Virus record (IMG/VR): IMGVR_UViG_3300047089_000244
Coordinates: 96,001-160,000 of that record
Length of the DNA: 64,000 nucleotides
Strand: one strand, 5' to 3'
DNA from: a virus
The position numbers and the translations under genes were made by a program. Below are positions 6,259 through 57,361 of this stretch, in pieces. How positions within the stretch are numbered: position 1 is the stretch's first letter; every line of letters starts with the position of its first letter. The notes below the pieces were generated by a model that saw nothing but the letters and a program-made list of their open reading frames with translations, made no database searches and was not told the DNA's origin.

Positions 6259-9200
6259 TCATGACTGAACCAATTCTAGGTCTTCTCGTTCCTTGCGCTT
6301 CTTACGAATCTCTTGTGGTGGCTTAGGCATAGCTATATCGCCACCCTCTAGATCGTCTTCGTGTTCGTCTTCGTCGGTAGCCCCTTCTGCTCGTGGCAAC
6401 CCACCCCAACTCTCGCTACTTGCGCCAGGGCTCTGCATATGCCAAACATGTTCTCGTTGCTGAAGACAACCAGGACAATCGCATGCTACACTGTAAGCAT
6501 GATCAACCCCAATGCCCTTCTGCTGGTCGCCTTCACCACGGTCGTAGGCGCTCTCCTTGGTTCCGTTCTTATCGGCGCTGCGGTAGGCCTCGCTATCGTG
6601 CTGATTGCCACCATCGTTAACTGAGCCCTCAGCTTTCATATAGTTGCGAGGTTGATCCTGCGGATAGCCGACCGGGTGACCTTCAGGGATTGACCATGAG
6701 TGATCACTGTTCTCCTCAGTGGGGTTGAGTCCATGTACAGGGCAGTCAAGCTTGTGCCCCTGATCACATGTACATCCCTCTTTCTCTGGATGAGGATTGC
6801 CTTGTGCTGGCTCTTGCATCGTGGTAGGGGGCATCATACGCGCGTCTGGATACTCGCGTGTATCCGATTGGTCTGCTCCGAAGTGCCAATCGGTATGTTC
6901 ACCTGATCGAAGACTCGGTACGGTCTGAAAGATGTGGTTAATGATGTCAGCCGGGACAGGGTGAGCCTTAGTATCGAGTCCACCGCGTGGTCGGATATTG
7001 AAGAAGTGCGCGCTTCCTTCGCCTAGCTGATATGGAGCATGGCTATCCATGTACTCCGCATGGTGCGGGGAACCTTGTACATTGACTGCCCATGTATGCA
7101 CGTCACCACTAGGCGTCACAAGGCCCTTGCCTGGGATACCCGAGCCTGGTAACCAAGCAAGTTGATGGCTGGCTTCCCTGAACGAGCGATACCCATCGTC
7201 TGCCATTTTCCCGTCAGGGCCGTCGCCCCATGTATGCTCGTCCCATTTGCCATAGCCATTAGGGGTAGCTTCCAAGTTATCCTCGAAGTCCTGCCAAGGC
7301 ATGGCGAACTCAGGAACAGAAGATGTAGGTATCACGCGCGGCTCTCCATCGATTCCCTCACCAACCGGCTTGCCTCGAAAGCCAACCACCCACCGATCTT
7401 GTGGGTCCCAACTCATATGACTCATGTATTCAGAGAGGTGATGGGGATTCCAGAACGATGAATACCCCGGCTTGCGATACTTCTCGCGCATAGTGTCAGA
7501 TATTCCATTGTCCTCGATCGGCACCGTCTCTGCGTGCTCGGTTCCCCACCAAGGCGCATCTGGATGATGCGCACGATAGTAGAGGCCGTTCTCCATCGGC
7601 AACGCCGTTAGCTGTTCGCCAGCTACTCTAGCGTACGCTGTCTGCCAGCTTTTGCTGCTCTCAGTAGGATCGGGTGAGTAACCATGAGCTTTGGCAAATT
7701 CGCGTAACTTGATAGAGCTTGGTTCCGTAATAGAAGCGTTGCCGTGACCAAGCGCGTTATTGATCGCCTGGTCGCCGGGATGTCCACTCAAAAAGAATGA
7801 GGCATGAGGATAGCCCGTAGGATCGCGCAAGCTCATCCATTGGTGATAGGGATACTGGCCTCCAAAGTTATCAATGGAGAAATCATCTAGAGTCTTATAA
7901 GGCTCGTTGGTGTACTCTGTTTCTCCATCGATTTCTCGTCCGGTCCCGCGAAGTCCTTTAGCCCAACAATTATGCATAAGCTGACCCTCCCGCTGACGAT
8001 CCTCTGGGGTCACGAGCTTATGAATTCGCCATTGATCAGGAAATTCATGAACCACTTGCGAAGTATCGGGACCCACTTGCTCAAGAGCCCGAGCCCGTTG
8101 AGGTTGAGTTAGCCCCCCTATGTGCTCGGGGAGATTCACAACTTCCTTCTCGATCTCCGACGGCTCATGCACCTTGAACTCACGAGCCCAGTCTTCCTCT
8201 AGATCGTCAGGCGCTCGATCGGTAGTCACATCCGTGTGCTTCTCAAGAAGCTCCTTCATGATGCCTATGCCTTTGGCATTATGGGAGTGGATGTTCACAC
8301 TCTTGGGCATATGCTTGCGGTGCTCATGCAACCAAATTACAAAGTCGCCGCCGCTCAGCGCATCTGGATTAATGACGACTTTACCCTCGTATTTGACTAT
8401 ACCCAAGTCATGATCAAGCGACATATGAGCGTAGTCATTATCCTTGGCGAGCTTTTTTGCTTCGCTTGCATCTTTGGCCCAATCCCAAGACTCATCAGGG
8501 GGATGTCGCGTATCGTCTAGCCAGAGTTTGTGCCTCGTAAAGGCTAGCCTAGACTGAAAATCCCAGTATTGCTCCTTGCCCTTGAATCCCACGTCCTTGA
8601 TACGAGGATCAGCCTGTTCTACGATATGGCGATAATCACGCGGGTCGTTTTCGCCATACTGATCTGGGCGTGGCTTATAGAATTTGACGCGACCTGCCTG
8701 AGAGATGTTGAAACATGTGTCCCAGAACGTCGTTGGCTGTCCTTCCCACTCGCCACCGTGGGGATCGTAGTCGCCGCCCTCATTAACCATACCTTTGGGA
8801 TGATTGAGCCCAAAGACCTTTTCAGCGTACTGAACATGGCTTGGTCTTCCGTCCTGACCGCTCGTAGGCCACGTATGTACATTGCCCTGAGGATCAAGCA
8901 TACCCTTGCCAGGGGTACCCGGCTCCCAGTTGAGTTGATTACCTTGATTATCAGAGACCTTTGTCTCTGCCCGCATCCAGGTGCGTGGAGCATCTGTGTG
9001 ATAGTCATAGCCCACGGGGCTAGATGGATCTGGGAAATCCAGAGAGTCATCATAAGTTGGTAGCGTCGGATGCAGACCGTGACATGGGCAATCCAACTTA
9101 TGGCCATCTTTGCATGTGCAATCCACATCAACGGGCTCACCATTTCGCTCTCGTAAAGCATTTGGCCATTGATCCTTTGGGTTCCAGCTATCAGCCACCT

Positions 9201-26398: not shown

Positions 26399-29300
26399 TC
26401 ATACCTCCGGTTGTGCGTTGATATACTCTTGCGCTCGCTGGAGTAACGCGCTCTTCTCATTGAGAGTCGGGTCCGCCACCACATCGTTAGTTAGCTGTCG
26501 TAGGATTGTACCAACTTGTGGTCCCGGTTTCAAGCCGAGAGCCAAGAGGTCGTTCCCGTTGACGCTAATCGCCGACTGGGTGGTAGGCGCTCCGGACTGC
26601 CGAGACTGCTCCACGAGTTCGCGCATCGTATCAACAGGCGTCTTATAGGACGTATCGATTCCTTTGCCCTCGTTATCAGCCGCACGGAGCGTTAAGAGGT
26701 CATCTGCCGCCTCTCCCGTCTTGTTCAGGAACTTACGAGCCCCCTTAGCACTAGAGAATTGCGGGAACATGTGCTGCGAGATCAAGTTGTGAATGTTGCG
26801 AATTTTGGTGACCGGATAGTTAAAGGTCTGGCGTAGGCGAGCCTCAGTCATATCCGCTCCGACTTTGGCGTGGTCGGCTCCCACTGGGACCCCTTCCAGC
26901 ATGCCCGCGTAGTAGTGTGTCACGCCCGTCGCTGGGTCTATCCATGCAGAAGCGGGCTTGCCCGTATCATGCAAGAGAGCAGCTAGGCGCAGGTCTGGAT
27001 CTTTGGAAGCGCGCGAGACATTATCGAACACATTTAGGCTATGCTCACCTAGTGAATAATTATGGTGAGGGTTTTTCTGATCATAGTCGAAGTTATTCGC
27101 TAGCTCAGGGAAGAGATGTTTGAGTACGCCTGTTTCCTGAGCCAAGCGGAATGCGCCCGCTGGATTAGCGCTCGTCAGAAGCTTCTCAAGCTGTTGCTTT
27201 AGCGCATCAGGTGACTCCTGATCCAGACGGTGAGCGTACTCTTCCATCTCCTTACGCGTCTGCTCGTCCGGAACCAGTCCGTGGCGGGAGTGCATCGTGA
27301 GGGCTCGGACCAAACGTGTTGGGTCCTCATCGAATGATCCTGGGTGAGTAGTCCGTAAAGTATGGGACTCAATGTCTCTAGCTCCTCCGTAGGGATCAAG
27401 CAATCGCCCCGACGAGTCAAGATCAACGGCCATAGAATTGGCCGTAAAGTCTCGTCGCTGTAAGTCTTTCTCGATTGGGAGATGATGATCGACTGTGATT
27501 TTTCCTTGTCCACGGGTTCCTCCTGATTCGTATGTGTCGGTGCGAGGAAGTGCGATCTCGACCTCTTGGCCTTTGGTATGATAGCGGTAGACGCCAAAGC
27601 GCTTACCCGTAAGATCCACGCGGCCCGGTAGATGCTCCAAGATGTTATTCACGTCCTCGGGCGGAATACCCGATACCATAAGATCAATGTCCTTAGGCTC
27701 CTTCTGAAGGAGAGCATCTCGCACGGCTCCACCAACGACATAGACCTTACCGCCAGCTTCTTTAAGAGCTTGTGAGGCCGTCCAAGCAGCACCATCAGCA
27801 GCCGTAATCGAACGGATGTATGTGCCTACGTCCGCCGAAGCAACCTTGTGCTTTTCTCCTGTCTGGCTTTCCATTTCGAGGCTCGTGATCTCTAGTCCTG
27901 GGTGACTATAGTACCACAACTGCATCATGTGATATGTGGAGAACGGGATAGTAGTCGTCGTATTGATGACCATCTTACCCTTTGGTTCGTAGTATCCCTC
28001 CACGATGCCACCTGGTGTAAACTGCCCCATGATGTCTGGAGTACGCATACCGGGGTGGCCTACCGTGATATAGTCCTTTTCGATGTCGTAGATGAAGGGG
28101 ATTGGAGCCTGAAGCAAGTCCTTTCCTTCTTTGCCGCCTGCGGCCTCGAAGTGCCACCCCGCTTCGTTCCTCCATCCAGGACCAATCGGTTGTAGGTGTT
28201 CTGGAAGTTGAGAAGTTCCGTCTCTCTGTGCCTGCACGAACTCCTTAACCCGGTTCAAGTGAGATACGTCCTCAGGAAGATCATCCTCTGTGATGTATTG
28301 GCCCCCGTGTGCGCCTATTTCTGTAGCGTGCTTGCCACGAGGGTCATAGGAGAACGAAGCATGTGGCCAATTGTTGGGATCTCTCAAAGAGAGATTCATG
28401 TCCGCCCCCATTACATGCTGACTAGAAGGATCGTAAACCATATCGTTTTGATCCTCTGATGTGCCCATACCTCCCCAGCAATGGTGCATCATGTCCCCCT
28501 CTCTACCAACCTCATTCCAGCTAGGCAAATGTCGAATAGTCCACCCATCAGGAAATTGATGAAGAATCTCCGTCTGCTCTGGTCCATGTACCTCTTCGAG
28601 TTTTGTCTTAAACCGTTGTTGTTGAGGAACGGTCATTCGTCCGAAGTGCCATTTGTCTGATGAAACAAAAGCCCCCATCACAGGAATAGCCGTAGGTGTG
28701 ACGTTGCGCGGTCGCAGTGGCAATGGCTCGTCTTTGTCTTCGATGGTCGGGAAGTGTCCGTCATCGATCGGCGCAGCTTTGGGGTCCTGGTGATCCTGCG
28801 TATGCATAACGTAGGCTTTGAAATCTGGTAGCGTCTCGTTGCAATATGGGCAGGTGAGTTGACCTTGGGGCTCGCCATCAAAAGCTTTGCCCGGTTCTGC
28901 TTCTGGATCGCCCTTGTCGTATGTGGTCGGCCACTCCTTGTTCTTGATACGATCGTTCATGTCCGTGCCACCTGGGTACTCTGCAATGCGATACCCAAAG
29001 TCATCTGCCCATTCGATTAGTCCCGGCAGAGCAAACGGATTTGGAGGACGGTTGAAACTAGCTGTACGACCTACTATCTCGATCTCATCGTGATTACCCC
29101 AGAACGGGCGACTGCTGAGCTTAAGCTTACCCTCGCGCCATCCATACCAGTATGACTTCTTGGCTCCAAAATCATCATGAATTGGTTGACCACTGCTATC
29201 TACCAAGCCACCCCACTTCCATCCAACTTGCTTGCTGTAATCCTTCATCATTTTTACTAGCCCGCGCAAGCCGATGTTGCTCTCGACACTCCAGAGAGCA

Positions 29301-30106
29301 TCACGTCCGCGCACATTGACATACCCAACGGCCATCGGGCCGTTATGATCGGGAGCGATCTGAGCCTCTTCTGCCATCTGTTCGTGGTCGTCTACGGGTG
29401 AGACTTTGAACTCGCCGTTGCCGAAGATGAACTTATACTCATGCTCAACAGGTTCCTCCATCGAGAGATTGAGGTCGTCTATCACCGGGTCGTGGAAATC
29501 GCGTTGATTGAATTCCTCTTCTGCCTGCGGGCCTTCGCCAGGATACGCGTCGGAACCCGATCCACCGGAGTCGGCTTGCTTCAGAATCTTACCCTCTAGA
29601 GCGGCATTAGCACGTTCGGCAAATAACTGTGATCGCTGAGTGATGTTTGGCGACTGTTCTAGGTCTTCCCAGTCACGTTTGTCCTGTCCTGGTTGAGGAT
29701 CACTCTGAATGCGGAAGTCGCGATAGAGAGGATTGGTTGCATGCGTGTAGACAATTGGGCCTGGCCTATGGCGCATCTGTTCAGGCTCATACTCATAGGG
29801 CTCATCCTCCGCGTCTTGTGGGCGCGGCGTACCTTTGACAGGAGTGAAAGCATACTGGTCGCCTGTGAGATCCACGACGTAATTCCTATCTGGGCTCACC
29901 CAGAAGAAGTGACCTTCCTTCTGGCCAATATGTCCGCCGCCGAGCTTGCTCTGAAGCCACTTAGATGTAACGTAACAATGTCCAGCGCTCGGCTGTGGAT
30001 GACCGCGAGAGTCCTCGGGGCGTGTCTCATCTGACCATGCGTGTTCTGCTGCGCGGCGTAGCTCGTGCAGTTTCTCTTGTGTGATCGTGTCTGGATCAAA
30101 TCCCAT
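26399..30106 (-). CDS. cca: 1235-aa polyvalent protein ending in a class II CCA-adding enzyme with HD domain
   Basis: VVGGAVRDALL..KDIDL, DLQRRDFTANS, DEDPTRLVRA, LAALLHDTGK; N-terminal GHCYVT..GG..HF, C2H2 finger, PcfJ-like module. Confidence 0.88.
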   Translation of the reverse strand: MGFDPDTITQEKLHELRRAAEHAWSDETRPEDSRGHPQPSAGHCYVTSKWLQSKLGGGHIGQKEGHFFWVSPDRNYVVDLTGDQYAFTPVKGTPRPQDAEDEPYEYEPEQMRHRPGPIVYTHATNPLYRDFRIQSDPQPGQDKRDWEDLEQSPNITQRSQLFAERANAALEGKILKQADSGGSGSDAYPGEGPQAEEEFNQRDFHDPVIDDLNLSMEEPVEHEYKFIFGNGEFKVSPVDDHEQMAEEAQIAPDHNGPMAVGYVNVRGRDALWSVESNIGLRGLVKMMKDYSKQVGWKWGGLVDSSGQPIHDDFGAKKSYWYGWREGKLKLSSRPFWGNHDEIEIVGRTASFNRPPNPFALPGLIEWADDFGYRIAEYPGGTDMNDRIKNKEWPTTYDKGDPEAEPGKAFDGEPQGQLTCPYCNETLPDFKAYVMHTQDHQDPKAAPIDDGHFPTIEDKDEPLPLRPRNVTPTAIPVMGAFVSSDKWHFGRMTVPQQQRFKTKLEEVHGPEQTEILHQFPDGWTIRHLPSWNEVGREGDMMHHCWGGMGTSEDQNDMVYDPSSQHVMGADMNLSLRDPNNWPHASFSYDPRGKHATEIGAHGGQYITEDDLPEDVSHLNRVKEFVQAQRDGTSQLPEHLQPIGPGWRNEAGWHFEAAGGKEGKDLLQAPIPFIYDIEKDYITVGHPGMRTPDIMGQFTPGGIVEGYYEPKGKMVINTTTTIPFSTYHMMQLWYYSHPGLEITSLEMESQTGEKHKVASADVGTYIRSITAADGAAWTASQALKEAGGKVYVVGGAVRDALLQKEPKDIDLMVSGIPPEDVNNILEHLPGRVDLTGKRFGVYRYHTKGQEVEIALPRTDTYESGGTRGQGKITVDHHLPIEKDLQRRDFTANSMAVDLDSSGRLLDPYGGARDIESHTLRTTHPGSFDEDPTRLVRALTMHSRHGLVPDEQTRKEMEEYAHRLDQESPDALKQQLEKLLTSANPAGAFRLAQETGVLKHLFPELANNFDYDQKNPHHNYSLGEHSLNVFDNVSRASKDPDLRLAALLHDTGKPASAWIDPATGVTHYYAGMLEGVPVGADHAKVGADMTEARLRQTFNYPVTKIRNIHNLISQHMFPQFSSAKGARKFLNKTGEAADDLLTLRAADNEGKGIDTSYKTPVDTMRELVEQSRQSGAPTTQSAISVNGNDLLALGLKPGPQVGTILRQLTNDVVADPTLNEKSALLQRAQEYINAQPEV

Positions 30107-31775: not shown

Positions 31776-32129
31776 TTATGCTCCCGCTGGTGGATCTTGT
31801 AAAGGTTGAGGGTTTGATATACCCGCAGGCTGTGGGATTGTTTGAGAATCGAACACCCGCGCAAGCTGTGAGCCTGCTTGAGCAACTAACCGGCCCTGCT
31901 GAACGATCGCGCCATTGAGCGCATTGATCGCCTTGATTGCTGTATGTGTCAAGAAGAAAACAGCAAGCCCCGCCCACGCAGTCGTAGCATAGCCGAGGAA
32001 GAAACTACCCAACGCCATGCTTGTCAAAGTAATATCCGAAATAATCGCCAGGACCAAACCAAATACATAGTTAAAAGCATAGGCTGGAAATTCCTTGAAG
32101 ATGGAAAGGATAGTTTGCTGTTCTTTCAT
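31776..32129 (-). CDS. membrane protein
   Basis: Hydrophobic helices. Confidence 0.6.
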   Translation of the reverse strand: MKEQQTILSIFKEFPAYAFNYVFGLVLAIISDITLTSMALGSFFLGYATTAWAGLAVFFLTHTAIKAINALNGAIVQQGRLVAQAGSQLARVFDSQTIPQPAGISNPQPLQDPPAGA

Positions 32130-32623
32130 GTCGTCGCCCCAATGATCGTAGTAGAAGTGTAATGCTCATCCAGGATAGCAGAACGCGATTCACGGAACTT
32201 AGTCAACATTATATTCTGAGCCTGCAATGGAACAAGCGCTGCACCAGTCCGTTGGGCATTACGATGCAAGGCTTGAGTGGGGTTATCGAAGAAGATCAAG
32301 TGCTTCTCTGCACCGTGGTAATCGGCGAGATCCGAGAGCTTCCAACGCGCCTGATAAGCCAACGACGTGGCATCAGCAACAGCATCTTCGCCTTCTTCTA
32401 GTATCTCACCCAGATGGCGATGGAACTCAGCGAAAACTTCCCCGTTGCGTTTTGCATCATATGGCTCTCCCGGCCATTTATACTCACGAATCCGATCGCT
32501 ACTAACGATTGACCACGGCGAAAAGAATGTTCGCGCCCAGGTAGACTTGCCGCTTCCTGGAATGCCTGCCAAGATGAACAAGCGAGGATTATGTCGTTCA
32601 ATAGAGAAATCCATAAATTTCAT
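32126..32623 (-). CDS. polynucleotide kinase-like P-loop kinase (AAA_33)
   Basis: LAGIPGSGKSTW, SSDRIR, ADAT, RNAQR..VP. Confidence 0.85.
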   Translation of the reverse strand: MKFMDFSIERHNPRLFILAGIPGSGKSTWARTFFSPWSIVSSDRIREYKWPGEPYDAKRNGEVFAEFHRHLGEILEEGEDAVADATSLAYQARWKLSDLADYHGAEKHLIFFDNPTQALHRNAQRTGAALVPLQAQNIMLTKFRESRSAILDEHYTSTTIIGATT

Positions 32624-49116: not shown

Positions 49117-49163
49117 CTATTCTCTACCAGGATGATCCTGGATTATCGCGCCCGTAAGTAAAG

Positions 49164-49232
49164 TCGCTCGTGCAGGAATCGAACCTGCGCCTGAAGATTA
49201 TGATTCTCCTTGGCACCCATAGCCTACGAGCG
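49164..49232 (-). tRNA. tRNA-Met/Ile2 (CAT), short D-arm
   Basis: CGCTCGT/ACGAGCG acceptor; GGAGA-ATCATAA-TCTTC; GGTTCGATTCC. Confidence 0.7.
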
Positions 49233-49378
49233 TGGATTTCACCTACCGCTTGCACGGATCATCGGCTACTCAATGTAACACGCCGTCTACGTACTCCCTA
49301 ATCCGGGGTGCGGTACGTAGCAAGGACAACGTGAGTTAGGTTCGATCCTCCGCTGTCGCAAAGCGGTACGTAACCATA

Positions 49379-49450
49379 AGCGTATAGCCGGGCTCGAACC
49401 GGCGACCCAAGCTTGGAAGGCTTGTGTGTTACCAACTACACTATACACGC
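49379..49450 (-). tRNA. tRNA-Gly(TCC)
   Basis: Cloverleaf; CAAGC-CTTCCAA-GCTTG. Confidence 0.93.
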
Positions 49451-49455
49451 ATAAA

Positions 49456-49902
49456 CTACTTACGCAAGAAAAACTTGTGCCTTTTAGACCCTCTGTAACC
49501 CGTATCTGGGAGACCACCAGGGGTCATTTTCATCTCAGGATTTTTCTCTCGGTAGAGTTTGAACTCCTGAAACGTCGCTGCCGTGTGAGGATCGTCGCGA
49601 TCTACAACCTCGACGCCAAGCGCTGTGACTGAGTGAGGGCGGATCTCCGTGTGACCCTCATCGATGATGAGCTTCGTCTTGAAGCCTCGCTCCTCGATAT
49701 AGTGCTTGATTACCATCAGGTGCATGTCATCCTCTGCCAGCATCACGAGCTTGCAGTAGTGACCGCCCTTGTACCAATCTGCAAGCAGATTGGGGTCGCT
49801 GATCCGGTACGCCTCGACGGCTGCATGCTGCCCCTGAGCAGTCATCTTGCCCGAGGTCATTCCGAGACTTCTATTGATGAAGCTATACATGGCTGTTCGC
49901 AT
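49456..49902 (-). CDS. pth2: peptidyl-tRNA hydrolase, Pth2 type
   Basis: LGMTSGKMTAQGQHAA, KLVM, IIDEGHTEI, TALG; leaderless promoter. Confidence 0.85.
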   Translation of the reverse strand: MRTAMYSFINRSLGMTSGKMTAQGQHAAVEAYRISDPNLLADWYKGGHYCKLVMLAEDDMHLMVIKHYIEERGFKTKLIIDEGHTEIRPHSVTALGVEVVDRDDPHTAATFQEFKLYREKNPEMKMTPGGLPDTGYRGSKRHKFFLRK

Positions 49903-50123
49903 GCACATAGTCTATCACAGAGGCTTGCGCGGTGGGAACACTTCGGACTTTGGTCCTACTGACCGCAGTCTCACTCGCGTTCACCGCGCAAGCTGTCTCC
50001 GAGCAGGGTCTCCGCTGAACGAACGTAGTGTATCACAAGTGCGCCCGCCCAGTTTGACCCAGACGCGCGCATGAGGACCCGAGGTCACCCAGCCGAACTG
50101 AATATGCCCGAAGCTAAGGTCCA

Positions 50124-50195
50124 AGCCTACACTCAGAATCGAACTGAGTTCTCTAGTTTACAAGACTAGCGCGTCACCACTTACGCTTTGCAGGC
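50124..50195 (-). tRNA. tRNA-Thr(TGT)
   Basis: CTAGT-CTTGTAA-ACTAG. Confidence 0.92.
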
Positions 50196-50201
50196 ACATC
50201 A

Positions 50202-50545
50202 TGTAGTCGATAAGCCGGATTCTGTCGTTGGACGATCATCCTTCTCAGTGGCGTGCCGACTAGGCCCAACGACCCTTTGGCGCTTGAGCTAACCCGAGGT
50301 CTCACACGATTCCACTGGTCCCCATGTTACCGGGGACTGCTCCCACCAGCTAATGCCATAGGCAGAGCCCTTAGGCTTCGACACTTGGGATTGCATCTCT
50401 CGGCTTCGTATGCGGTCATAGCGGCCTAAGCCTCCCGCCATCCACGTCACCTATCCAGCACCCCTTGTGAGGGATCTGAGTTTCCCCAGACGAGATGTCC
50501 GGACTTTCCTCGGAGGGATCGGACCTCCGCGATCGTCTGACTACA
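50202..50545 (-). ncRNA. rnpB: RNase P RNA (bacterial type)
   Basis: P1 TGTAGTC/GACTACA; P2 GACGATC/GATCGTC; GAGGAAAGTCCGG and ACAGAATCCGGCTTA forming P4. Confidence 0.92.
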
Positions 50546-50645
50546 GGATCATGATGGGATTCGAACCCACACCTGGGCACTCGCCTCTGCCAATTGATCC
50601 ACTTACAGAGTTCCGTACGCTTCTGCAAGCAGGCCCTACATGATC
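50546..50645 (-). ncRNA. tRNA-like RNA (acceptor and T arm, no D stem or anticodon arm)
   Basis: GATCATG/CATGATC; GTGGG-TTCGAAT-CCCAT. Confidence 0.65.
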
Positions 50646-50793
50646 ACCAAGCTTTCTCAGTCGCACCCTGACACAACTCGACCCGCCAGAGGCGGGCCGG
50701 AAGTGAGGGAACGACCCTCGAACGACTTTCAAGCACTTGTTATATAGCAGGAATCGAACCCGCTAAGGGATATCCTTAGATAATCTTTAGAAA

Positions 50794-50883
50794 CGGTACC
50801 GTGGGGATTCGAACCCAACCGCCTCGTTAGAGCGATTTCCCGCTTGAAAGGCGTTCTGCACTCCAAAGTGCTTTCATGGTACC
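50794..50883 (-). tRNA. atypical long-arm tRNA (9/3 allo-tRNA-like; loop CTTTCAA)
   Basis: GGTACCATG/CACGGTACC; GCACT-TTGG-AGTGC; long variable arm; GGG-TTCGAAT-CCC. Confidence 0.55.
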
Positions 50884-50900
50884 CTGTGGTCGAACAGGTG

Positions 50901-51263
50901 TCAAGAGCCGTGTGTACGCTCCCGGTGGCAGTTCGAGCAAACGACCTCGCACTTGTCGATCTCCTCCTGGATAACTTCCAGGCGATATCGTTGTGCTACG
51001 AGCCAATTGACACTGCCAAACTTCTCCCCACGTACATGATCGAAGTCCATGACGTAGGGCGGATACTGGACCCCGCAGTCGGCACAAGGAACTTCCTTTT
51101 GCGCGTTGATGTGCGCCATGATCTCAGCACGTTTGTTTGCCGCCCAGGTGTTGCGCTTGATCTTCCACTCGGATAGCTGGTGCTCCGCGAGGTAGCGATC
51201 CTTGTTGCGCTGGTAACTCCGTTGTTGAGCGGCGCGCTGCTTGCCTTTGTCCTTGTACGGCAT
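50901..51263 (-). CDS. HNH endonuclease-like protein
   Basis: PCADCG..MDFDHVRGEK..EIDKCEVVCSNCHRERT. Confidence 0.85.
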   Translation of the reverse strand: MPYKDKGKQRAAQQRSYQRNKDRYLAEHQLSEWKIKRNTWAANKRAEIMAHINAQKEVPCADCGVQYPPYVMDFDHVRGEKFGSVNWLVAQRYRLEVIQEEIDKCEVVCSNCHRERTHGS

Positions 51264-51295
51264 GCACATTACACACCAGGATGGGTTCACTTCCA

Positions 51296-51368
51296 AGCAG
51301 CAGATGGGACTCGAACCCACAACCTCCACCTTGGCAAGGTGGCGCTCTAGCCATTGAGCTACTACTGC
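51296..51368 (-). tRNA. tRNA-Gly(GCC)
   Basis: CCACC-TTGCCAA-GGTGG. Confidence 0.95.
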
Positions 51369-51572
51369 GCGTGCGACTCGTTTCTTCGCGAGGAGAGTCA
51401 CCATCCCCGTCCATTTTTATCCGCCCTACGCTTCGCTTGTCCCCGGAGGGGCGGGTTTCAAACCGCGCTTATCGTGTATATGGGCCTTCTACGAAGTGAG
51501 TAGCTCATCACGAACGGGACGCGCGAAGGTCGTCGTGAACTTCCTCCAGCAATGACCGCATTATGAGCTAAG

Positions 51573-51649
51573 TCCCCCGTGCTGGAGTCGAACCAGCCTA
51601 CTATGAGCTTCCACGATGCCATCTCATTGTAAGTCCAGGCACCGAAGAA
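51573..51649 (-). ncRNA. tRNA 3'-half / tRNA-like element resembling the 3' end of tRNA-Arg(TCG)
   Basis: GCTGG-TTCGACT-CCAGC-ACGGGGGA. Confidence 0.55.
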
Positions 51650-52155
51650 ATGCAAGCTCGCCAGTAACCACCCACAAAGGCCGTTCGTTTCCGATGGCAG
51701 TTCGAACAGAGCACATCGCACTTGGCAATCTCAGTTTCTATCGTTGGCACATCGTAACCTGATGCAGTCATGTCAGACACCGCAGCAACCTTCTGACTGG
51801 GGTCGCGATGATCAAAGTCAAGCACAACCGGATCAGACTCGCCACAATTGATACAGGGATGCTTTTGAAGGTAGTCCCAAATCCATGCTTGCGCGCGCTC
51901 CTGAACAATCCTTTTGCGAGCTTTCGTCCTTGCTTTGATACGATCCTTGTTCCGTAAATAGTGCGCGTCTGAAACGATCTTCTGACATGCTTTACAGTGA
52001 GCTTGATGTTTGTCGCCTTTGGTAGCAAACTCTTTGAGTGGCTTCTCAAGTTCGCATTTACCGCAGATCTTAGTCCCCCCGGCTGGAATCGAACCAGCGA
52101 CGGTCGTGGATTCGAAGTCCACCGCTCTGTCCTCTGAGCTACGAAGGGTTGTCAT
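51601..52155 (-). CDS. HNH endonuclease-like protein whose frame runs through tRNA-Arg(TCG)
   Basis: KICGKC..C..C; HPCINCGE.D..VLDFDHRD..EIAKCDVLCSNCHRKRT. Confidence 0.75.
   Translation of the reverse strand: MTTLRSSEDRAVDFESTTVAGSIPAGGTKICGKCELEKPLKEFATKGDKHQAHCKACQKIVSDAHYLRNKDRIKARTKARKRIVQERAQAWIWDYLQKHPCINCGESDPVVLDFDHRDPSQKVAAVSDMTASGYDVPTIETEIAKCDVLCSNCHRKRTAFVGGYWRACISSVPGLTMRWHRGSS
52074..52148 (-). tRNA. tRNA-Arg(TCG)
   Basis: GTGGA-CTTCGAA-TCCAC. Confidence 0.9.
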
Positions 52156-52184
52156 ACCTATTATCATCGCGTATTGACTTCGAA

Positions 52185-52367
52185 TCAGGCATGAGGTTCG
52201 AAGTCCCACCAACGTCGCATAGTTTCAAGAGCGACCTCGGCAATATCTCGATATTCGTCACGGACCTCTTCGTGCGCTTCGAGCCAAGGTATAGCTCGCG
52301 CAGAAAAGTCTTTCTCCTCAGCCTCATAAATGGCTTGAGCTACTCGCTCTATCAATTTCGTCTCCAT
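52185..52367 (-). CDS. small phage protein (IERVAQAIY family)
   Basis: ERVA.AIY..W......RD.YR..A..AL..MR. Confidence 0.65.
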   Translation of the reverse strand: METKLIERVAQAIYEAEEKDFSARAIPWLEAHEEVRDEYRDIAEVALETMRRWWDFEPHA

Positions 52368-52369
52368 TT

Positions 52370-52409
52370 AGATTCGAAGTCTCAGGTCCTCATCCGTAGG
52401 ACAGGGGAA
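52370..52409 (-). pseudogene. 5' half of a tRNA-Arg(TCG)
   Basis: D arm GTCCT-ACGGATG-AGGAC, then TGAGA-CTTCGAA-TCT; no T arm follows. Confidence 0.6.
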
Positions 52410-52411
52410 GG

Positions 52412-52486
52412 ACTCCTGGCTGTTTGCGACAGCATCTCCCACTTAAAAGGCGGGGCTCTATTGCAGGCACTTTGAGCTACAGGAGG
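52412..52486 (-). tRNA. degenerate tRNA-Lys(TTT) (long D-loop, non-canonical T-loop)
   Basis: CTCCTG/CAGGAG; CCGC-CTTTTAA-GTGG; GCTGT-CGCAA-ACAGC. Confidence 0.6.
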
Positions 52487-52488
52487 AG

Positions 52489-52561
52489 TGGGTCGTCCCG
52501 GACTCGAACCGGGAATTGTCTCCTTAAGAGGGAGGTGCTCTTACCATTTAGCTAACGACCC
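52489..52561 (-). tRNA. tRNA-Lys(CTT)
   Basis: CTCC-CTCTTAA-GGAG. Confidence 0.92.
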
Positions 52562-52670
52562 AAAAACCCCGGCTCTCACGGTCACGCACACGAGCCGCTT
52601 ATCAGGCGACGCTCGCATACCATCCCGGTTCCACCGGGTCTGGGAACCGCATTTCGGTTCCGAGGCTTAG

Positions 52671-52743
52671 TCCCCTTGACTGGATTTGAACCAGTGACTT
52701 CCTCCTTCGCAGGGAGGCACTCTATCCACTGAGCTACAAGGAG
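52671..52743 (-). tRNA. tRNA-Arg(GCG)
   Basis: CCTCC-CTGCGAA-GGAGG. Confidence 0.92.
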
Positions 52744-52810
52744 AGGTAAAGCGAGTATTTAGCGCCCTCGCTCACGGCTGTCTCTAGCATGGCCAATGGC
52801 CAAAGCCAGA

Positions 52811-53416
52811 TCATCTTGAAAACTTGTTTTCCTGCCAATCATGCAAGAGCGTATACTCATACGAGCTTGGATCACCACCGATAATCAAATCAAAGAGGAC
52901 TGGTCTTACGTCCTTCAAGCTTTCGATCAGATGGTCAGCAATATCGCACTCCGCCTTTGTGAGATATGGAGCAATAGATTTGTTGCTCTGCCCGTCTCGG
53001 AGATGTAAGGCTCGGTGCCAGCCGATACAGGCCGGGATCGTGCAATAGGACCGAGGTGCATAGTTGATGTAGTCCGGAAGCTCCAGCATCAACCAACGTG
53101 GCACAAAATGGTGCCGTGTGATGGCACCTTCGCAATCCTTCGGCTCGTCGTGGTAGCGACAAACTAAAGGGCGCTGCGTAGCTAGGGCGCGAGCCTTCTT
53201 CTGTTCGATGATCTTGTGCGGTATCAGTCCGCTATTGTGATTGAGTCGCCAGAGTACAGCACGGGTAGAGAGACGTTCATCAAGAAGATCATCGATCTCC
53301 GCGTCCTCCATTTCCGCAAGCACTTCTAGCTGCTCAACAGTAGCTTCTGAGTCATAGGAATCGAACCAAAAGACCTCTCCCGTGACAGGATGTGTCCAGT
53401 CTCGTGCTCGTGACAT
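52811..53416 (-). CDS. HNH-like protein
   Basis: C..C..ITRHHFVP..TIPAC..WHRALH. Confidence 0.6.
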   Translation of the reverse strand: MSRARDWTHPVTGEVFWFDSYDSEATVEQLEVLAEMEDAEIDDLLDERLSTRAVLWRLNHNSGLIPHKIIEQKKARALATQRPLVCRYHDEPKDCEGAITRHHFVPRWLMLELPDYINYAPRSYCTIPACIGWHRALHLRDGQSNKSIAPYLTKAECDIADHLIESLKDVRPVLFDLIIGGDPSSYEYTLLHDWQENKFSR

Positions 53417-53453
53417 ACCTATAGTATACAGGGTATGTCAAGGTTCGAAAAAG

Positions 53454-53528
53454 TAGCCCGTGCGGGATTCGAACCCGCGTTCACGCGGCCTGAGAAGCCG
53501 GTATCCTAAACCACTAGACCAACGGGCC
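53454..53528 (-). tRNA. tRNA-Glu(CTC)
   Basis: CGGC-TTCTCAG-GCCG. Confidence 0.92.
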
Positions 53529-53589
53529 ATAAAGCTATCTGGGCGAGGTACGGATCTATTGAGAATCCGCTGTCATTCCAGATAGCAAG

Positions 53590-53662
53590 TACTCCTCCCA
53601 GGACTCGAACCTGGAACCATTCGCATATAAGACGAAAGCTCTAACCATTGAGCTAGAGGAGC
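53590..53662 (-). tRNA. tRNA-Ile(TAT)
   Basis: TTCGT-CTTATAT-GCGAA. Confidence 0.88.
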
Positions 53663-53672
53663 ATGCGGCCCC

Positions 53673-54267
53673 TCACAAGGAGGGACCGTTAATTGCTTCA
53701 CAGGTGCTAGACAGCAAACGGGGCGTTTGTTCCTTGAACTTTTCGCCTCCGTAAGATGTTTCATTGTGAGACTGACTCGACCAGGTTATTTCACCACCCC
53801 GATACGGTTTTCTCTGATACCATTCTTCCCAGTACCACGGATACCGGCGGGCCGGGATGGGTACAGAATAGGGCTGAGGTACTGGCCTTGAAGCCAACTC
53901 CGCCTTGAGTAAACGAATACAGTCATCGGTTGTCGGGTCCTTGCCGTGACTATGCCACGAGAGCCCACAAATAGAGCAAATCGTTGAAACGGCGATTGGC
54001 TCAGGTTTTGTTAATTTCTTTCGTGCTGCCATGATTTTCTACAGAGAGGCCCGAAGACATTTCACCGCGATTGACTCGTTTTTCGGTCATTCCACCCCAA
54101 ACATGACCTCGTGCAGAATCGAGTGCTTTACCCGCTGACGAAGTGGTCATATTCAATGCTTGACCAATCTGGGGAACCGTATTACCATCAAAGTACATCT
54201 TGAAGGCTTCGTATTCCGTCGCGTTGAGACAGTACACAGCTTCTATGTCTTGCCTCCCCATTTTCAT
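53673..54267 (-). CDS. two small ORFs (53673-54032; 54001-54267 with sigma70-region-4/LuxR-like HTH)
   Basis: L...EYEAF.MY.DG.T..QIG..LNMT. Confidence 0.55.
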
Positions 54268-54301
54268 CCTCCTTTAGGACGTTTTGGTTTGAGTACTACA
54301 G

Positions 54302-54374
54302 GGTGGCCAGAGGGAATCGAACCCTCATCGCCGGGATCACAACCCGGAGTTCTAACCGTTGAACTATGGTCACC
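54302..54374 (-). tRNA. tRNA-His(GTG), encoded G-1
   Basis: CCGGG-TTGTGAT-CCCGG. Confidence 0.94.
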
Positions 54375-54378
54375 ATGA

Positions 54379-54472
54379 TGCGCCAGAGAAGACGCGACCC
54401 TCCTGTCCTTCGGCTCGGGGGCCTGTGCTAGCACAACCCACTGTCCGCTGCTCCGCTCTGAGCTACTGGCGC
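54379..54472 (-). ncRNA. tRNA-like RNA with extended non-canonical anticodon region
   Basis: GCGCCAG/CTGGCGC-A; TAGCTCAG..GAGC D arm; aberrant T-loop. Confidence 0.55.
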
Positions 54473-54473
54473 A

Positions 54474-54548
54474 TATCCCCTCTCGGATTCGAACCGAGAC
54501 TGTACTGGGCTTAAACCAGTTCCCTCTGCCAGTTGGAGTAAGGGGACA
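54474..54548 (-). tRNA. tRNA-Leu(TAA), short variable arm
   Basis: ACTGG-TTTAAGC-CCAGT. Confidence 0.9.
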
Positions 54549-54554
54549 AGATAG

Positions 54555-54625
54555 ATGGAGAACAGGGATTCGAACCCCGATTGAGAGCTTCAAAGGCTCC
54601 GGTCTTGCCATTAGACGATTCTCCA
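54555..54625 (-). tRNA. tRNA-Gln(TTG)
   Basis: GAGC-CTTTGAA-GCTC. Confidence 0.92.
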
Positions 54626-54702
54626 AAGTAATCGGCGCGGATATCCACGGGTTAGGGGGCGAGAACCTAATCTCTTGCGCTAAACCGCCTTGTACCGATT
54701 AG

Positions 54703-54773
54703 CTGGAGAACAGGGACTCGAACCCCAATGACAACGCTCAGAACGTTGCATCTTGCCATTAGATGATTCTCCA
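54703..54773 (-). tRNA. tRNA-Gln(CTG)
   Basis: CAACG-TTCTGAG-CGTTG. Confidence 0.92.
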
Positions 54774-54780
54774 AAGTACA

Positions 54781-54853
54781 TAGCAGACCCGAGAATCGAA
54801 CTCGGCTCTCAAGCTTATGGGGCTCGAATGGTCGTCCAGACCACCTGTCTGCA
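54781..54853 (-). tRNA. tRNA-Met(CAT), 1:72 mismatch (initiator-like), C33
   Basis: CGAGC-CCCATAA-GCTTG. Confidence 0.8.
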
Positions 54854-54855
54854 AA

Positions 54856-54939
54856 TGCCCACCGGGAGATTCGAACTCCCACACCTTTTCAGATAGCGCC
54901 TTTTGAGGACGCCGCGTCTACCATTCCAGCCAGGTGGGC
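54856..54939 (-). tRNA. tRNA-Leu(CAA)
   Basis: GCGTC-CTCAAAA-GGCGC; long variable arm. Confidence 0.92.
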
Positions 54940-55006
54940 GTATTTATGATAATTGCCTTGTGCACGCGAGGCAAATTTTTCCGAGGCGGGACTTCCTTCC
55001 TCAGAA

Positions 55007-55078
55007 TTGGAATACTAGGACTCGAACCTAGAATACCACCGTATCAGAGTGGCGTGATAACCATTTCACTATATTCCA
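55007..55078 (-). tRNA. tRNA-Ile(GAT)
   Basis: CCACT-CTGATAC-GGTGG. Confidence 0.88.
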
Positions 55079-55079
55079 G

Positions 55080-55151
55080 CGGATCTGAGAGGAATCGAAC
55101 CTCTGACGCGCGGTTCTTCAAACCGCCGCTCTACCCCTGAGCTACAGATCC
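55080..55151 (-). tRNA. tRNA-Phe(GAA)
   Basis: GCGGT-TTGAAGA-ACCGC. Confidence 0.93.
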
Positions 55152-55454
55152 AGGGTTACTTCTTGACACGAGTAATCTCCTCAAGGTCGTCATAAAGCTT
55201 AGGTAGGTTCTCCTCGAACGCACACTCTAAGCATTTGCCAATCTTGGGCAAAGCTCTCTTTGTACAACCCGATTCACTACAAACGCCGGGCCTCATGAAT
55301 TGTGGGATGTTAATATCTTCTTCATTCATTTTGCGTATCCTGAAAAGGTAAAAAAGTAAGATAGCCCCTCCTAGAAGGAGCCCTTGTTTCATATACCCAG
55401 TCATCACTCGTTATACAACGGGTGATGCAAGAAAATGAGCGGAAGGTGAAGGAG

Positions 55455-55811
55455 TCAAGGATTAGGAGAACGACTACTATTGCAACGCAAGTGAGAGAAA
55501 GCAATGTTCTCCATATCCCAAAACAAATCCGCATCGACACCCAACCAAGATTGCTTATGCTCAATACTTAAATCAGATTCATTCTCAATGATCCCTCCGC
55601 AATGAAAGCAAACATTCCGATCGGTATCACAAACGAGCATAAAAAGAACCTTCTTGCGCAATCTATGCGCTGCGGTGCCCCATGGCATACCCAACTGTTC
55701 CGCCTTCTTCAGGTGGCTTTTCGACGGAATCACCGTCCCGTCAGCCTTACGTTCCTTGTAACGACGTGCATTATATTTACGCACGGCCTCTTTATCCCTG
55801 GATACGGGCAT
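55455..55811 (-). CDS. HNH-like protein
   Basis: CFHCG..LSIEHK..W..NIAFSHLRCN; leaderless TGATATACT promoter. Confidence 0.75.
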   Translation of the reverse strand: MPVSRDKEAVRKYNARRYKERKADGTVIPSKSHLKKAEQLGMPWGTAAHRLRKKVLFMLVCDTDRNVCFHCGGIIENESDLSIEHKQSWLGVDADLFWDMENIAFSHLRCNSSRSPNP

Positions 55812-55830
55812 ACGGAATAGTATATCATAA

Positions 55831-55914
55831 CGGAAGCGTAGAGAGTCGAACTCTAGAGGGCTCATCACCCCAGGCGGGTTCAAACCGCTGTCCTCAGCCA
55901 ACCGGATCACTTCC
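55831..55914 (-). tRNA. tRNA-Ser(TGA)
   Basis: GCGG-TTTGAAC-CCGC; long variable arm; G73. Confidence 0.88.
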
Positions 55915-55972
55915 AAGGGGGTCCGTCCGAGAGCCTTGTTCAGGCCGGGGACGGCTGCCCCGTTGAGTTGAG

Positions 55973-56043
55973 ACGCGACGGCGAGAATTGAACTCGCGTA
56001 GGCGGGTTTGCAATCCGCTGGATGGCCTCTATCCTACGTCGCG
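55973..56043 (-). tRNA. tRNA-Cys(GCA)
   Basis: GCGGA-TTGCAAA-CCCGC; U73. Confidence 0.85.
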
Positions 56044-56049
56044 ATGAAG

Positions 56050-56120
56050 CTGGAAGGCTCGGACTCGAACCGAGAATACCTGGTTAACGGCCAGGTGTGA
56101 TGCCATTTCACTACCAACCA
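56050..56120 (-). tRNA. tRNA-Asn(GTT), C33, mismatched acceptor
   Basis: CCTGG-CCGTTAA-CCAGG. Confidence 0.8.
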
Positions 56121-56279
56121 ATGTTGTACTGGTACGCCTCGGCTACTTATTGTCGGTTTCGTGTAGGTACGAGATCCGAGTTGACCGACCTCTCGGTCGA
56201 GCTATCGACTTACCACCCGTCACCCGTGTACACATCCAGCTTGGGCCGGGAATGACCTACGACCAGTACGGTACTACAG

Positions 56280-56365
56280 CGGAAGGGGTGGGATTCGAAC
56301 CCACGGTGGCTCTCGCCACACTGCCTTAGCGGGGCAGCACAATAATCCATCTCTGCCACCCTTCC
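56280..56365 (-). tRNA. tRNA-Ser(GCT), C33
   Basis: CTGCC-CCGCTAA-GGCAG. Confidence 0.88.
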
Positions 56366-56448
56366 AGGTGCGCCAGTGTCAGTTGATCCATAGCCTGGCG
56401 CATCCACAGTTATGGCCGCTTGCTTTCCCTGCATGCTGGTACTTGCAA

Positions 56449-56523
56449 AGCCCCTAGCGGGATTCGAACCCACGCAGTGCATCGCTTAGGAAGCGACCGC
56501 TCTATCCTCTGAGCTATAAGGGC
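56449..56523 (-). tRNA. tRNA-Arg(CCT)
   Basis: GTCGC-TTCCTAA-GCGAT. Confidence 0.92.
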
Positions 56524-57289: not shown

Positions 57290-57361
57290 TGGACGATCAG
57301 GGTATCGATCCCCGTACCTCCCGCCTGTCAAACGGGTGCTCTCCCATTGAGCTAATCGTCC
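57290..57361 (-). tRNA. tRNA-Val(GAC)
   Basis: CCCGT-TTGACAG-GCGGG. Confidence 0.9.

Follow-up and report, generated by a model that had tools for sequence, protein, structure and literature searches.

The locus examined here raises the question of why a phage should carry a CCA-adding enzyme at the end of a chain of otherwise unrelated modules, and of whether such a chain works as one machine, as a set of separable units, or is an artefact. The gene (P0001) was found as an uninterrupted fusion ORF of 1,235 aa (26399..30106, stop codon included) within a 64,000-nucleotide stretch of DNA, hereafter the window, from the genome of a ~170-kb soil phage; coordinates refer to the window and, unless stated otherwise, to its minus strand. 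In our preferred answer, P0001 belongs to the polyvalent type of modular phage proteins, with self-contained units on one chain; this explanation is considered probable, if only just, when all of its parts are taken jointly. As expected of such proteins, at least six unrelated modules were distinguished, and YunG, PcfJ, GNAT, Fic, and CCA units were each found alone or in other contexts elsewhere.

Modular organization of the N-terminal region

The first 756 residues would constitute a separate conserved scaffold comprising a YunG-type domain, two alpha/beta domains, a zinc finger, an insertion slot, and a module termed FIYD. The YunG-type domain (residues 1-170; 29597..30106) was matched by Pfam PF24585 over residues 13-107 at 28.2 bits, above the cut-off of 27, while the YunG domains of several relatives scored slightly under this threshold. 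Residues C44, H66, and D79, a putative thiol-enzyme triad, were invariant in all homologues that have the domain (43-45 homologues), in agreement with the YunG-like Cys/His module proposed in the original prediction. In the AF2 model (pLDDT ~85-96 for residues 1-80; uneven, 65-95, for residues 81-170), C44 opens a helix (44-54), and H66 and D79 are on strands (66-70 and 76-79, respectively). Fold matches were weak (protein glutaminase, LapG, SseI, and NAT; Z 4.6-5.6), and many enzymes of this fold are not proteases; on the side of a protease reading are the invariance of the triad and the presence of thiol proteases and amidases among the fold neighbours (Z ≤ 5.6).

Directly C-terminal to the YunG domain is a conserved K-x-A motif (L175-K-Q-A178; 29573..29584; consensus KxADxGG in alignment A1), which opens a disordered linker (residues 176-215; pLDDT <50). 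The linker is followed by (i) a first alpha/beta domain, s2 (residues 216-316; 29159..29461), modelled at pLDDT ~90 and with weak fold matches only (Z ≤ 5.2); and (ii) the beta-rich core of a second domain, s3 (residues 317-375; 28982..29158), as delimited in the structure model. At about residue 376 is a second insertion hot spot, with inserts at q376 in the relatives P0017, P0021, P0029, P0032, and P0039 (the last a Fic domain). The C2H2-type finger that had been predicted (residues 415-440; 28787..28864) was recovered as the pattern C-x2-C-x12-H-x3-H at 419-439, with CPYC at 419-422 and the remaining ligands at H435 and H439; C419, C422, and H435 are nearly invariant, and the region was modelled as a beta-hairpin plus helix. 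The finger was sub-threshold in Pfam (14 bits vs. 25.6), and PDB zinc fingers were matched only at E ≥ 0.09.

The FIYD module (residues 655-756; 27839..28144) has 12 invariant columns in a 60-sequence alignment (A5) and was present in all related loci; neither a family nor a PDB relative was found for it by sequence. Its suggested recurrence in a 562-aa ORF held for the motif only: FVYD is present at residue 312 of that ORF, but a common module was not demonstrated, with an HMM of 59 homologues giving no match at E ≤ 10 and hhalign aligning just 19 columns (E 0.12). The module ends in the junction K754-V755-A756 (27839..27847), followed by S757, which is the point of fusion and fission among relatives and a candidate cleavage site.

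The CCA-adding enzyme and its presumed substrates

Residues 757-1235 (26402..27838) were assigned by Pfam, PHROG, and NCBIfam to the class II CCA-adding enzymes, and as part of our preferred explanation they are predicted to be an active enzyme of this class with an HD phosphohydrolase domain. An intact CCA/HD enzyme had been proposed to start after HKVAS (~27840); as HKVAS corresponds to residues 753-757, S757 is placed at position 27838. All of the Pfam domains were detected above their cut-offs, including the PolyA_pol head (788-918; 27353-27745; E 1.7e-25), PolyA_pol_RNAbd (946-1004), HD (1020-1117; 26756-27049; 30.5 bits vs. 22), and tRNA_NucTran2_2 (1176-1223). PHROG 2244 (tRNA nucleotidyltransferase) matched at 1e-61, and the nearest solved relatives were the Thermotoga and Bacillus CCA-adding enzymes. 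In an alignment of 52 sequences (A4; mean column identity 61%), the GGxVRD, DxD, and RRDFTxN motifs, the D and first R of EDxxR, and the H...HD residues were invariant, and the E of EDxxR was nearly so. In P0001 these correspond to GGAVRD (792-797) and DIDL (806-809), which contain the invariant G32, G33, R36, D37, D46, and D48 of A4; to RRDFT of motif B (884-888) and EDPTR of motif D (927-931), both of which align to the Thermotoga and Bacillus enzymes; and to the HD metal-binding residues H1015, H1046, and D1047 (H255, H286, and D287 of A4). The NCBIfam model TIGR02692 scored 194.4 bits and did not reach its equivalog cut-off of 438.8, and all other NCBIfam CCA and pcnB models likewise scored below their own cut-offs, so that residues 757-1235 could have CC-only, A-only, or poly(A) activity.

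Presumed substrates were found in the same window as an array of 36 tRNA genes and a tmRNA gene (49163..60419), none with an encoded CCA. When all 38 ARAGORN calls were considered (the 36 minus-strand array tRNA genes, the tmRNA, and one doubtful plus-strand call), every one was without CCA after the acceptor stem, and 25 had N-C-T at this position; the earlier reading that the tRNAs of the window lack CCA thus extends to 37 tRNA genes and the tmRNA. A single CCA-type enzyme gene was detected in the 170-kb genome. The surroundings of P0001 include RNA ligase and PTH2 genes as well as an AAA_33 (polynucleotide-kinase-like) gene (32126..32623), a conserved neighbour, located in relatives 3-4 genes upstream of the fused gene. 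We suggest that the CCA unit would build or repair the 3′ CCA of the phage's own 37 tRNAs and tmRNA and that, together with the Pnk-like kinase, the phage RNA ligase, and PTH2, it probably makes up a translation maintenance or repair set. That the phage may mature its own tRNAs, as originally supposed, is consistent with the CCA-less tRNAs, the single enzyme gene, its invariant catalytic residues, and the neighbouring RNA-repair and translation genes.

The variable slot and the fusion across relatives

Between W486-H-F-G and W651-H-F-E, the scaffold of P0001 holds a cassette (residues 486-650; 28157..28651) that had been described as PcfJ-like. The match to PcfJ (PF14284) missed the threshold (15.6 bits vs. 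a cut-off of 25; E 0.015), and the cassette scanned alone gave no PcfJ match at E ≤ 0.01; the link was instead made through intermediates, with 24 of the 75 phmmer homologues of the cassette matching PcfJ (best 2.8e-13) and the motifs EG..M..C ... SLRD..N.PH conserved in the cassette alignment (A2). The fold predicted for the cassette (AF2 pLDDT 84.6) was nearest to GNAT acyltransferases, and true GNATs fill the same slot in relatives. PcfJ modules were found in proteins of up to 3,742 aa, and a [KRH]-hydrophobic-[A/S/G] motif also occurs N-terminal of PcfJ modules in unrelated giant proteins. The proposed paralogy to a module of the 1,390-aa ORF (residues 770-916; 7684..8124) was borne out by BLASTP (34% identity to residues 487-627 of P0001, E 1e-13) and by a module HMM, which detected exactly two copies in the 170-kb genome (1e-36 and 7e-30). 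Judged by sequence, the two are true but old paralogues, and an identity of only 34% argues against a recent swap between P0001 and the 1,390-aa ORF.

Module exchange, which had also been proposed, was well supported across genomes. When module content was compared among relatives that are otherwise 70-90% identical, the slot (486-650) was found to be PcfJ-like, GNAT, zinc ribbon, or empty; Fic cassettes were found in relatives as well. DNA homology to relatives ended at about aa 455-479 and restarted at aa 650-655 in the six loci compared; for three of them the restart coincides with the W of WHFE (aa 651). W-x-F motifs border the slot in the closer relatives (approximately P0002-P0022, and P0029), while relatives with a GNAT in the slot are without them. 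The slot takes interchangeable cassettes, whose targets are probably in the host, with no part in CCA addition.

The fused design was retained in ~50 uncultivated relatives and in 54 of the 60 metagenomic homologues (identity down to ~30%), and the domain order was equal at 27 loci, including a scaffold of Solirubrobacter (Actinomycetota). In the most distant relatives YunG and s3 were lost, while s2, FIYD, and the CCA enzyme were kept; s2 was retained in P0055-P0061 and in L021, L024, and L028. In split relatives, an N-terminal protein is adjoined by a CCA gene of 486-497 aa with the break at HKVA, the N-proteins ending in HKVA at the stop codon or at most four residues away. In 58 homologues aligned across the junction, K-[VLI]-A was nearly universal, the exceptions being one each of KLS, KVS, FRFA, and FKFA, and the stand-alone CCA proteins of split relatives keep a matching R-L-S near the N-terminus, which fits either a removed leader or a purely structural role. 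A free-standing HNH-type gene was found exactly at the ORF break in L004, L012, and L015, while L003 and L013 are split with no endonuclease gene. The L015 split falls inside the FIYD module, which suggests that the two halves may have to reassemble.

The NCBIfam scores under the equivalog cut-offs and a pcnB match at 127 bits would fit a C-terminus that is inactive or a poly(A) polymerase, and the fusion itself might stem from an assembly or frameshift error; however, a reading of P0001 as an artefact or dead gene is highly improbable. The CCA model outscored pcnB (194 vs. 127 bits), tRNA_NucTran2_2 is present, and the catalytic residues are all invariant, while the uninterrupted architecture is seen again in the bacterial genome scaffold and in over 40 independent contigs, which come from different samples. 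Neither of the grounds for refutation named in the original prediction was borne out by this comparison, and the fusion is, on the evidence of its homologues, real and old.

Competing readings and known systems

How the units of P0001 are used was considered in light of the junctions. In our preferred explanation, the chain would be cut, or would work as separable parts, at conserved (H/K/R)-hydrophobic-small junctions, the putative sites being K-V-A|S ahead of the CCA enzyme, W-H-F-G/E on either side of the cassette, and K-Q-A following YunG. Candidate proteases are the YunG domain itself or a phage ClpP-like protease, for which a gene is present in the genome. Alternatively, K-V-A could cap the FIYD or CCA domain structurally, and W-x-F could be a recombination landmark rather than a protease site. 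The chain might also stay uncut as an integrated holoenzyme, with the N-terminal scaffold (especially s2 and FIYD) serving as accessory to the CCA enzyme; the scaffold might bring in tRNA precursors of the phage, regulate the enzyme, or couple CCA addition to another tRNA-directed reaction, for which YunG or GNAT acting on aminoacyl- or acetyl-aminoacyl-tRNA would be examples. This arrangement, which we consider rather unlikely, would account for the persistence of fusion or strict adjacency over wide divergence, for the retention of s2, FIYD, and CCA when YunG and s3 are dropped, and for the L015 halves, which would need to associate. GNAT and Fic families include toxins directed at tRNA or translation, and cassettes of both kinds would also suit a tRNA-directed chain. 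However, no CCA gene lies within 6 kb of the scaffold in five loci (L018, L022, L025, L027, and L028), phages commonly encode CCA enzymes that stand alone and do without such a partner, no known RNA-binding family was detected in residues 1-756 by Pfam and PDB sequence searches, and the free variation of slot content suits cargo better than a tuned accessory.

Delivery with the virion was weighed alongside. P0001 might be loaded into the capsid, cut at its junctions by the ClpP-like protease during head maturation, and ejected with the DNA, so that all modules, CCA repair included, would be at work ahead of any phage gene expression. Polyvalent proteins have been proposed to travel with DNA (PMC5512222, PMC7824862), the P0001 gene is ~7 kb downstream of the portal gene on the same strand, and the protease gene, the conserved junctions, and the short leader ending in the motif in split CCA proteins are all compatible with such a route. 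Against it, Pfam and PHROG revealed no known packaging domain, whether MuF, portal-associated, or other; the immediate neighbours here and in relatives are kinase, phosphoesterase, and nucleotide-metabolism genes and not structural ones; and a promoter and terminator scan was at chance level. The early delivery of CCA repair that had been envisaged is thus not favored, and the packaged form as a whole is improbable. Slightly less improbable, though still doubtful as a joint proposal, is that a clade of soil actinophages has a dedicated polyprotein system, in which cargo enzymes between (H/K/R)-hydrophobic-small motifs are released by a protease (either the YunG thiol domain at the N-terminus or the ClpP-like protease of the head), possibly in the capsid. 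Under this proposal, the incoming DNA would be accompanied by finished enzymes for tRNA repair and counter-defence, and the PcfJ-like cassette would be a divergent acyltransferase-like effector.

In relation to known systems, residues 757-1235 have the architecture of the cellular class II CCA enzymes (actinobacterial TIGR02692, the multifunctional Cca of E. coli, Thermotoga 3H37, and Bacillus 1MIV), including the Pol-beta head with GGxVRD/DxD, RRDFTxN, DPxGG, EDxxR, neck/body, HD, and tRNA_NucTran2_2, and align full length to TIGR02692 (positions 19-452 of 466). They differ in their score (194 bits vs. the 438.8-bit cut-off) and in the 756 aa of unrelated modules in front, as the cellular and other phage enzymes stand alone. 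The splits with an HNH-type gene at the break resemble genes in pieces, as in phage Aeh1, whose split ribonucleotide reductase reportedly arose by homing-endonuclease insertion; unlike these, the P0001 gene is unbroken, and two of the splits have no endonuclease gene. The tRNA nucleotidyltransferases that phages encode as separate proteins (PHROG 2244), mentioned for jumbo phages in PMC7824862, belong to the same enzyme family, occur in phages with large tRNA sets, and presumably add or restore CCA; however, none of the 386 phage records matching P0001 covers residues 1-745, and in P0001 the enzyme forms the C-terminal part of a polyprotein.

The closest parallel is to the polyvalent proteins of phages and conjugative elements, described by Iyer, Burroughs, Anand, de Souza, and Aravind in 2017 and including forms with GNAT and peptidase domains (PMC5512222); that paper makes no mention of CCA-adding enzymes, YunG, or PcfJ. 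Like them, P0001 joins many unrelated domains in one phage polypeptide, shuffling among relatives involves GNAT, Fic, peptidase-like, and 2H-type modules, and the same genome encodes a second polyvalent-type protein (the 1,390-aa ORF) with a common module. Unlike them, the P0001 family keeps its scaffold fixed and takes up inserts at defined slots, in place of free shuffling. Its delivery with the DNA and processing by an embedded peptidase are putative, the conserved junction motifs and the thiol-enzyme domain being circumstantial evidence. Phage CCA-adding enzymes and polyvalent proteins were each known already; a cassette-bearing polyprotein with an essential enzyme of tRNA maturation as a permanent part was not found described in the literature searched. 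Its fused, split, cassette-swapped, and endonuclease-interrupted versions make the family a natural experiment on the processing of such polyproteins and on the reasons for linking housekeeping with conflict functions. For YunG and PcfJ, both uncharacterised Pfam families, it supplies a defined setting and residues that can be tested (C44/H66/D79 in YunG; the conserved Cys/Asp/His in PcfJ). Should cleavage or virion delivery prove true, P0001 would offer a parallel, among bacterial viruses, to RNA-virus polyproteins with a leader protease and to the internal proteins of T4. Overall, P0001 is a new form of the known polyvalent-protein theme of phages and not a new kind of system.

The probable CCA-adding enzyme and its presumed tRNA substrates

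The window covers bases 96001-160000 of an IMG/VR virus record of 169,966 bp that was judged complete, and the minus strand carries nearly all of the genes. The fused ORF (26399-30106, minus strand) is open over 1235 codons. HKVAS was found at residues 753-757, thus placing the start of the CCA enzyme at about 27838 in the window, in agreement with the original reading of the sequence. Pfam domains of this C-terminal part included: (i) the PolyA_pol head (residues 788-918) and PolyA_pol_RNAbd (residues 946-1004); and (ii) an HD domain (residues 1020-1117) followed by tRNA_NucTran2_2 (residues 1176-1223). PHROG 2244 (tRNA nucleotidyltransferase) matched residues 786-1208 at 1e-61. Every NCBIfam model scored under its equivalog cut-off for the CCA enzyme, with the actinobacterial CCA enzyme TIGR02692 at the top (194 bits, model positions 19-452 of 466) and the PcnB poly(A) polymerase model below it at 127 bits. 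The nearest solved proteins were the Thermotoga and Bacillus CCA-adding enzymes, whose motifs align residue for residue. When 52 family members were aligned (mean column identity 61%), GGxVRD, DxD, RRDFTxN, DPxGG, the D and first R of EDxxR, and the H...HD of the HD domain were found to be invariant, and the E of EDxxR nearly so. No second gene of the PolyA_pol type was found in this genome. We conclude that residues 757-1235 represent a functional class II nucleotidyltransferase that is most probably CCA-adding, with CC, A or poly(A) as other possible products.

As potential substrates, ARAGORN identified one tmRNA gene along with 37 tRNA genes, of which 36 tRNA genes form an array at 49163-60419. 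With each acceptor stem located, none of the 38 tRNA/tmRNA genes was found to encode CCA, as had been read from the sequence originally. Immediately 3′ of the acceptor stem in this region (49163-60419), discriminator-C-T was observed in 25 of the 38 genes and discriminator-T in most others; the T that is almost always next to the last retained tRNA base looks like a common 3′-processing signal. The sole plus-strand call, a 78-nt tRNA-Val (cac) at 61661-61738 with 6 of 7 acceptor pairs, falls within the minus-strand RNA ligase ORF (61138-61884) and is probably a false positive. Genes for PTH2 and an RNA ligase are also present in the genome, and an AAA_33 polynucleotide-kinase-like gene lies three genes upstream of the fusion, a neighbor that is also conserved in relatives. 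A 255-aa ORF (30120-30887, minus strand) terminates 13 nt ahead of the fusion; it is syntenic in relatives (261-262 aa) and has a weak IBR/zinc-finger match (E 7.5e-4).

Upstream modules and their exchange

For the N-terminal part, an AlphaFold model from 53 homologues had a pLDDT of 74, with confident regions at residues 1-170, 220-375, and 415-440. Pfam placed a YunG domain at residues 13-107 (28.2 bits against a cut-off of 27). In the model, C44 is at a helix start with H66 and D79 on the following strands, and all three residues are invariant in every homologue that bears the domain. Protein glutaminase, LapG, SseI, and arylamine N-acetyltransferase, all Cys-His-Asp enzymes, were listed by the structure search at Z scores of only 4.6-5.6; thus the earlier description of this domain as papain-fold is reasonable, though not proven. 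Two alpha/beta domains (here s2 and s3) make up residues 216-375, with weak and non-specific fold matches, and a Foldseek search with the model of residues 1-490 returned only weak gelsolin-repeat rows (E 2e-3). The proposed C2H2 finger has a conserved ligand pattern (C419-x2-C422-x12-H435-x3-H439) and a modeled hairpin and helix, but its name rests on sub-threshold C2H2 matches only. A repeated hairpin-helix unit was also considered for the N-terminal part and was unsupported by sequence, as hhalign among five segments gave at best a probability of 11% (s2 vs s3).

The module that precedes the enzyme, termed FIYD (residues 655-756), is strongly conserved, with 12 invariant columns across 60 sequences, and matched no family and no solved relative. 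Sub-threshold zinc fingers were the only relatives returned by PDB sequence searches with the PcfJ, scaffold (N-terminal 756 residues), and FIYD profiles. The original claim that a short F(I/V)YD module is shared with the 562-aa ORF of the window was not supported, with a best BLASTP E-value of 0.078, no HMM match at E ≤ 10, and an hhalign alignment of 19 columns at E 0.12. A predicted complex between FIYD and the CCA enzyme scored 0.00, which is evidence neither way.

That the fusion might be an assembly artifact was ruled out, as the CCA enzyme is carried by 54 of the 60 metagenomic proteins that match residues 1-790. The order YunG, s2, s3, variable slot, FIYD, and CCA enzyme was constant in 27 mapped loci. 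Pairwise maps positioned the variable stretch between conserved blocks at residues 1-488 and 650-1235. In relatives with flanks that are 80-86% identical, this stretch is missing or is replaced by a zinc ribbon or unrelated sequence, and in a large subclade the slot is occupied by a true GNAT. Of the 27 mapped loci, 12 have GNAT in the slot; the PcfJ-like module was in the slot at none of them and in the next downstream gene at five. Motifs of the type W-x-F border the slot in closer relatives, with the window versions being W486-H-F-G and W651-H-F-E. DNA homology to six relatives is lost at around aa 420-479 (for four relatives, aa 455-479) and restarts at aa 650-655 (aa 651 in three). Extra insertion points were found near residue 376, where one relative has a Fic domain, and near residue 230, where the insert is intein-like. 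Based on these slot contents, insertion points, and DNA homology breaks, the proposed exchange of modules is well supported between genomes; the two PcfJ-like copies of this genome are old paralogues rather than a recent swap. In homologue P0040, the insert at the residue-230 position is about 237 aa long (its residues ~203-438) and gave a weak match to Intein_splicing that is under the cut-off (E 7e-4). Two other homologues, P0048 and P0050, each gave two overlapping BLAST HSPs (query ~647-760 and ~670-1226; subject ranges 574-685 and 706-1249 in P0048), and in these proteins the FIYD module may be tandemly duplicated ahead of the CCA enzyme.

As first noted from the sequence, the slot module of the fusion is paralogous to one in the 1390-aa ORF (6259-10431, minus strand), residues 487-627 aligning with 770-916 at 34% identity (E 1e-13); across the 170-kb genome, a module HMM found exactly these two copies. 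Among 1.84 billion representative proteins searched, 222 relatives of this cassette were revealed, which occur within giant proteins as long as 3742 aa or as free-standing proteins of 100-200 aa. Pfam PcfJ scored the window copy at 15.6 bits, under the cut-off of 25; however, 24 of 75 cassette homologues matched PcfJ (best 2.8e-13), and the name PcfJ-like is therefore correct by transitive homology. The cassette folds confidently (pLDDT 84.6, pTM 0.81). The nearest structures were almost all GNAT-fold acetyltransferases, at Z scores of only 4.1-5.8 and Foldseek E ≥ 0.2, and similarity between the PcfJ-like and slot GNAT modules was absent by hhalign; a GNAT-like fold predicted for the PcfJ-like module is a lead and nothing more. 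When 'PcfJ' and 'YunG' were sought in the literature, all matches were unrelated (plasmid names, surnames).

Junctions, splits, and candidate proteases

Over the junction with the enzyme, almost every one of the 58 aligned homologues has K-[VLI]-A plus a small residue. K-Q-A directly follows the YunG domain, and [K/R/H]-hydrophobic-[A/S/G] strings also precede the PcfJ modules of unrelated giant proteins. In two-piece relatives, the N-terminal protein ends in HKVA (twice), HKVASVGC, or TKLARSS, and is followed by a CCA gene of 486-497 aa whose product begins a few residues ahead of the matching R-L-S. Five loci have no CCA gene within 6 kb of the scaffold. At three splits, a free-standing HNH/endonuclease-VII-type gene is positioned exactly at the break, each time at a different position: at the K-V-A junction (L004:8408-9004), at the slot (L012:5091-5640), and inside the FIYD module (L015:5484-5985). 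Thus, fission of the fused gene is often due to a mobile gene. An Rfam search of the loci of split relatives detected zero introns.

A ClpP-family protease gene (62340-63053, minus strand, 93 bits), located just upstream of the RNA ligase gene and tRNA array, is a candidate for head maturation or polyprotein processing. Pfam models for HK97-type capsids and for the S78 protease had zero matches in the genome. From the conservation of the junction motifs and the positions of the gene breaks, we infer that the chain may be cut at these sites by the YunG thiol domain or the ClpP-like protease. The alternative reading, that the chain stays whole as a holoenzyme and the scaffold works for the CCA enzyme, is kept alive by the constant core of s2, FIYD, and CCA enzyme, and by the L015 split, which falls within FIYD.

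Relatives, roles, and known systems

A related fusion of 1534 aa (L007:3832-8436) was identified in Candidatus Solirubrobacter pratensis (Actinomycetota), on the 602-kb scaffold NZ_AUEK01000007.1; its slot holds a GNAT, and about 200 additional residues separate FIYD from the CCA enzyme. The overlapping next ORF (L007:8426-12277, at least 1284 aa) has a PcfJ-like module. This element is likely a prophage and a clue to the host, in agreement with the actinobacterial flavor of the CCA domain. Among 50,697 deposited phage genomes, none matched the N-terminal part and only the enzyme part had matches; megablast of the gene against the same number of phage records gave zero matches.

The best-supported reading is that the fusion is a polyvalent-type protein (PMC5512222) of separable units. 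The last unit would add and repair the CCA ends of the tRNAs that the phage itself encodes, while the upstream units, including the swappable cassette, would have other roles that are probably host-directed. Delivery of the fusion protein in the virion, as a form of the early delivery originally suggested, found no direct support: searches revealed zero packaging domains, the neighboring genes are metabolic with none structural, and scanning the surroundings of the gene for promoters and terminators gave results at chance level. Phage CCA enzymes are already known (PMC7824862), as are polyvalent proteins, with PMC5512222 making no mention of CCA enzymes, YunG, or PcfJ.
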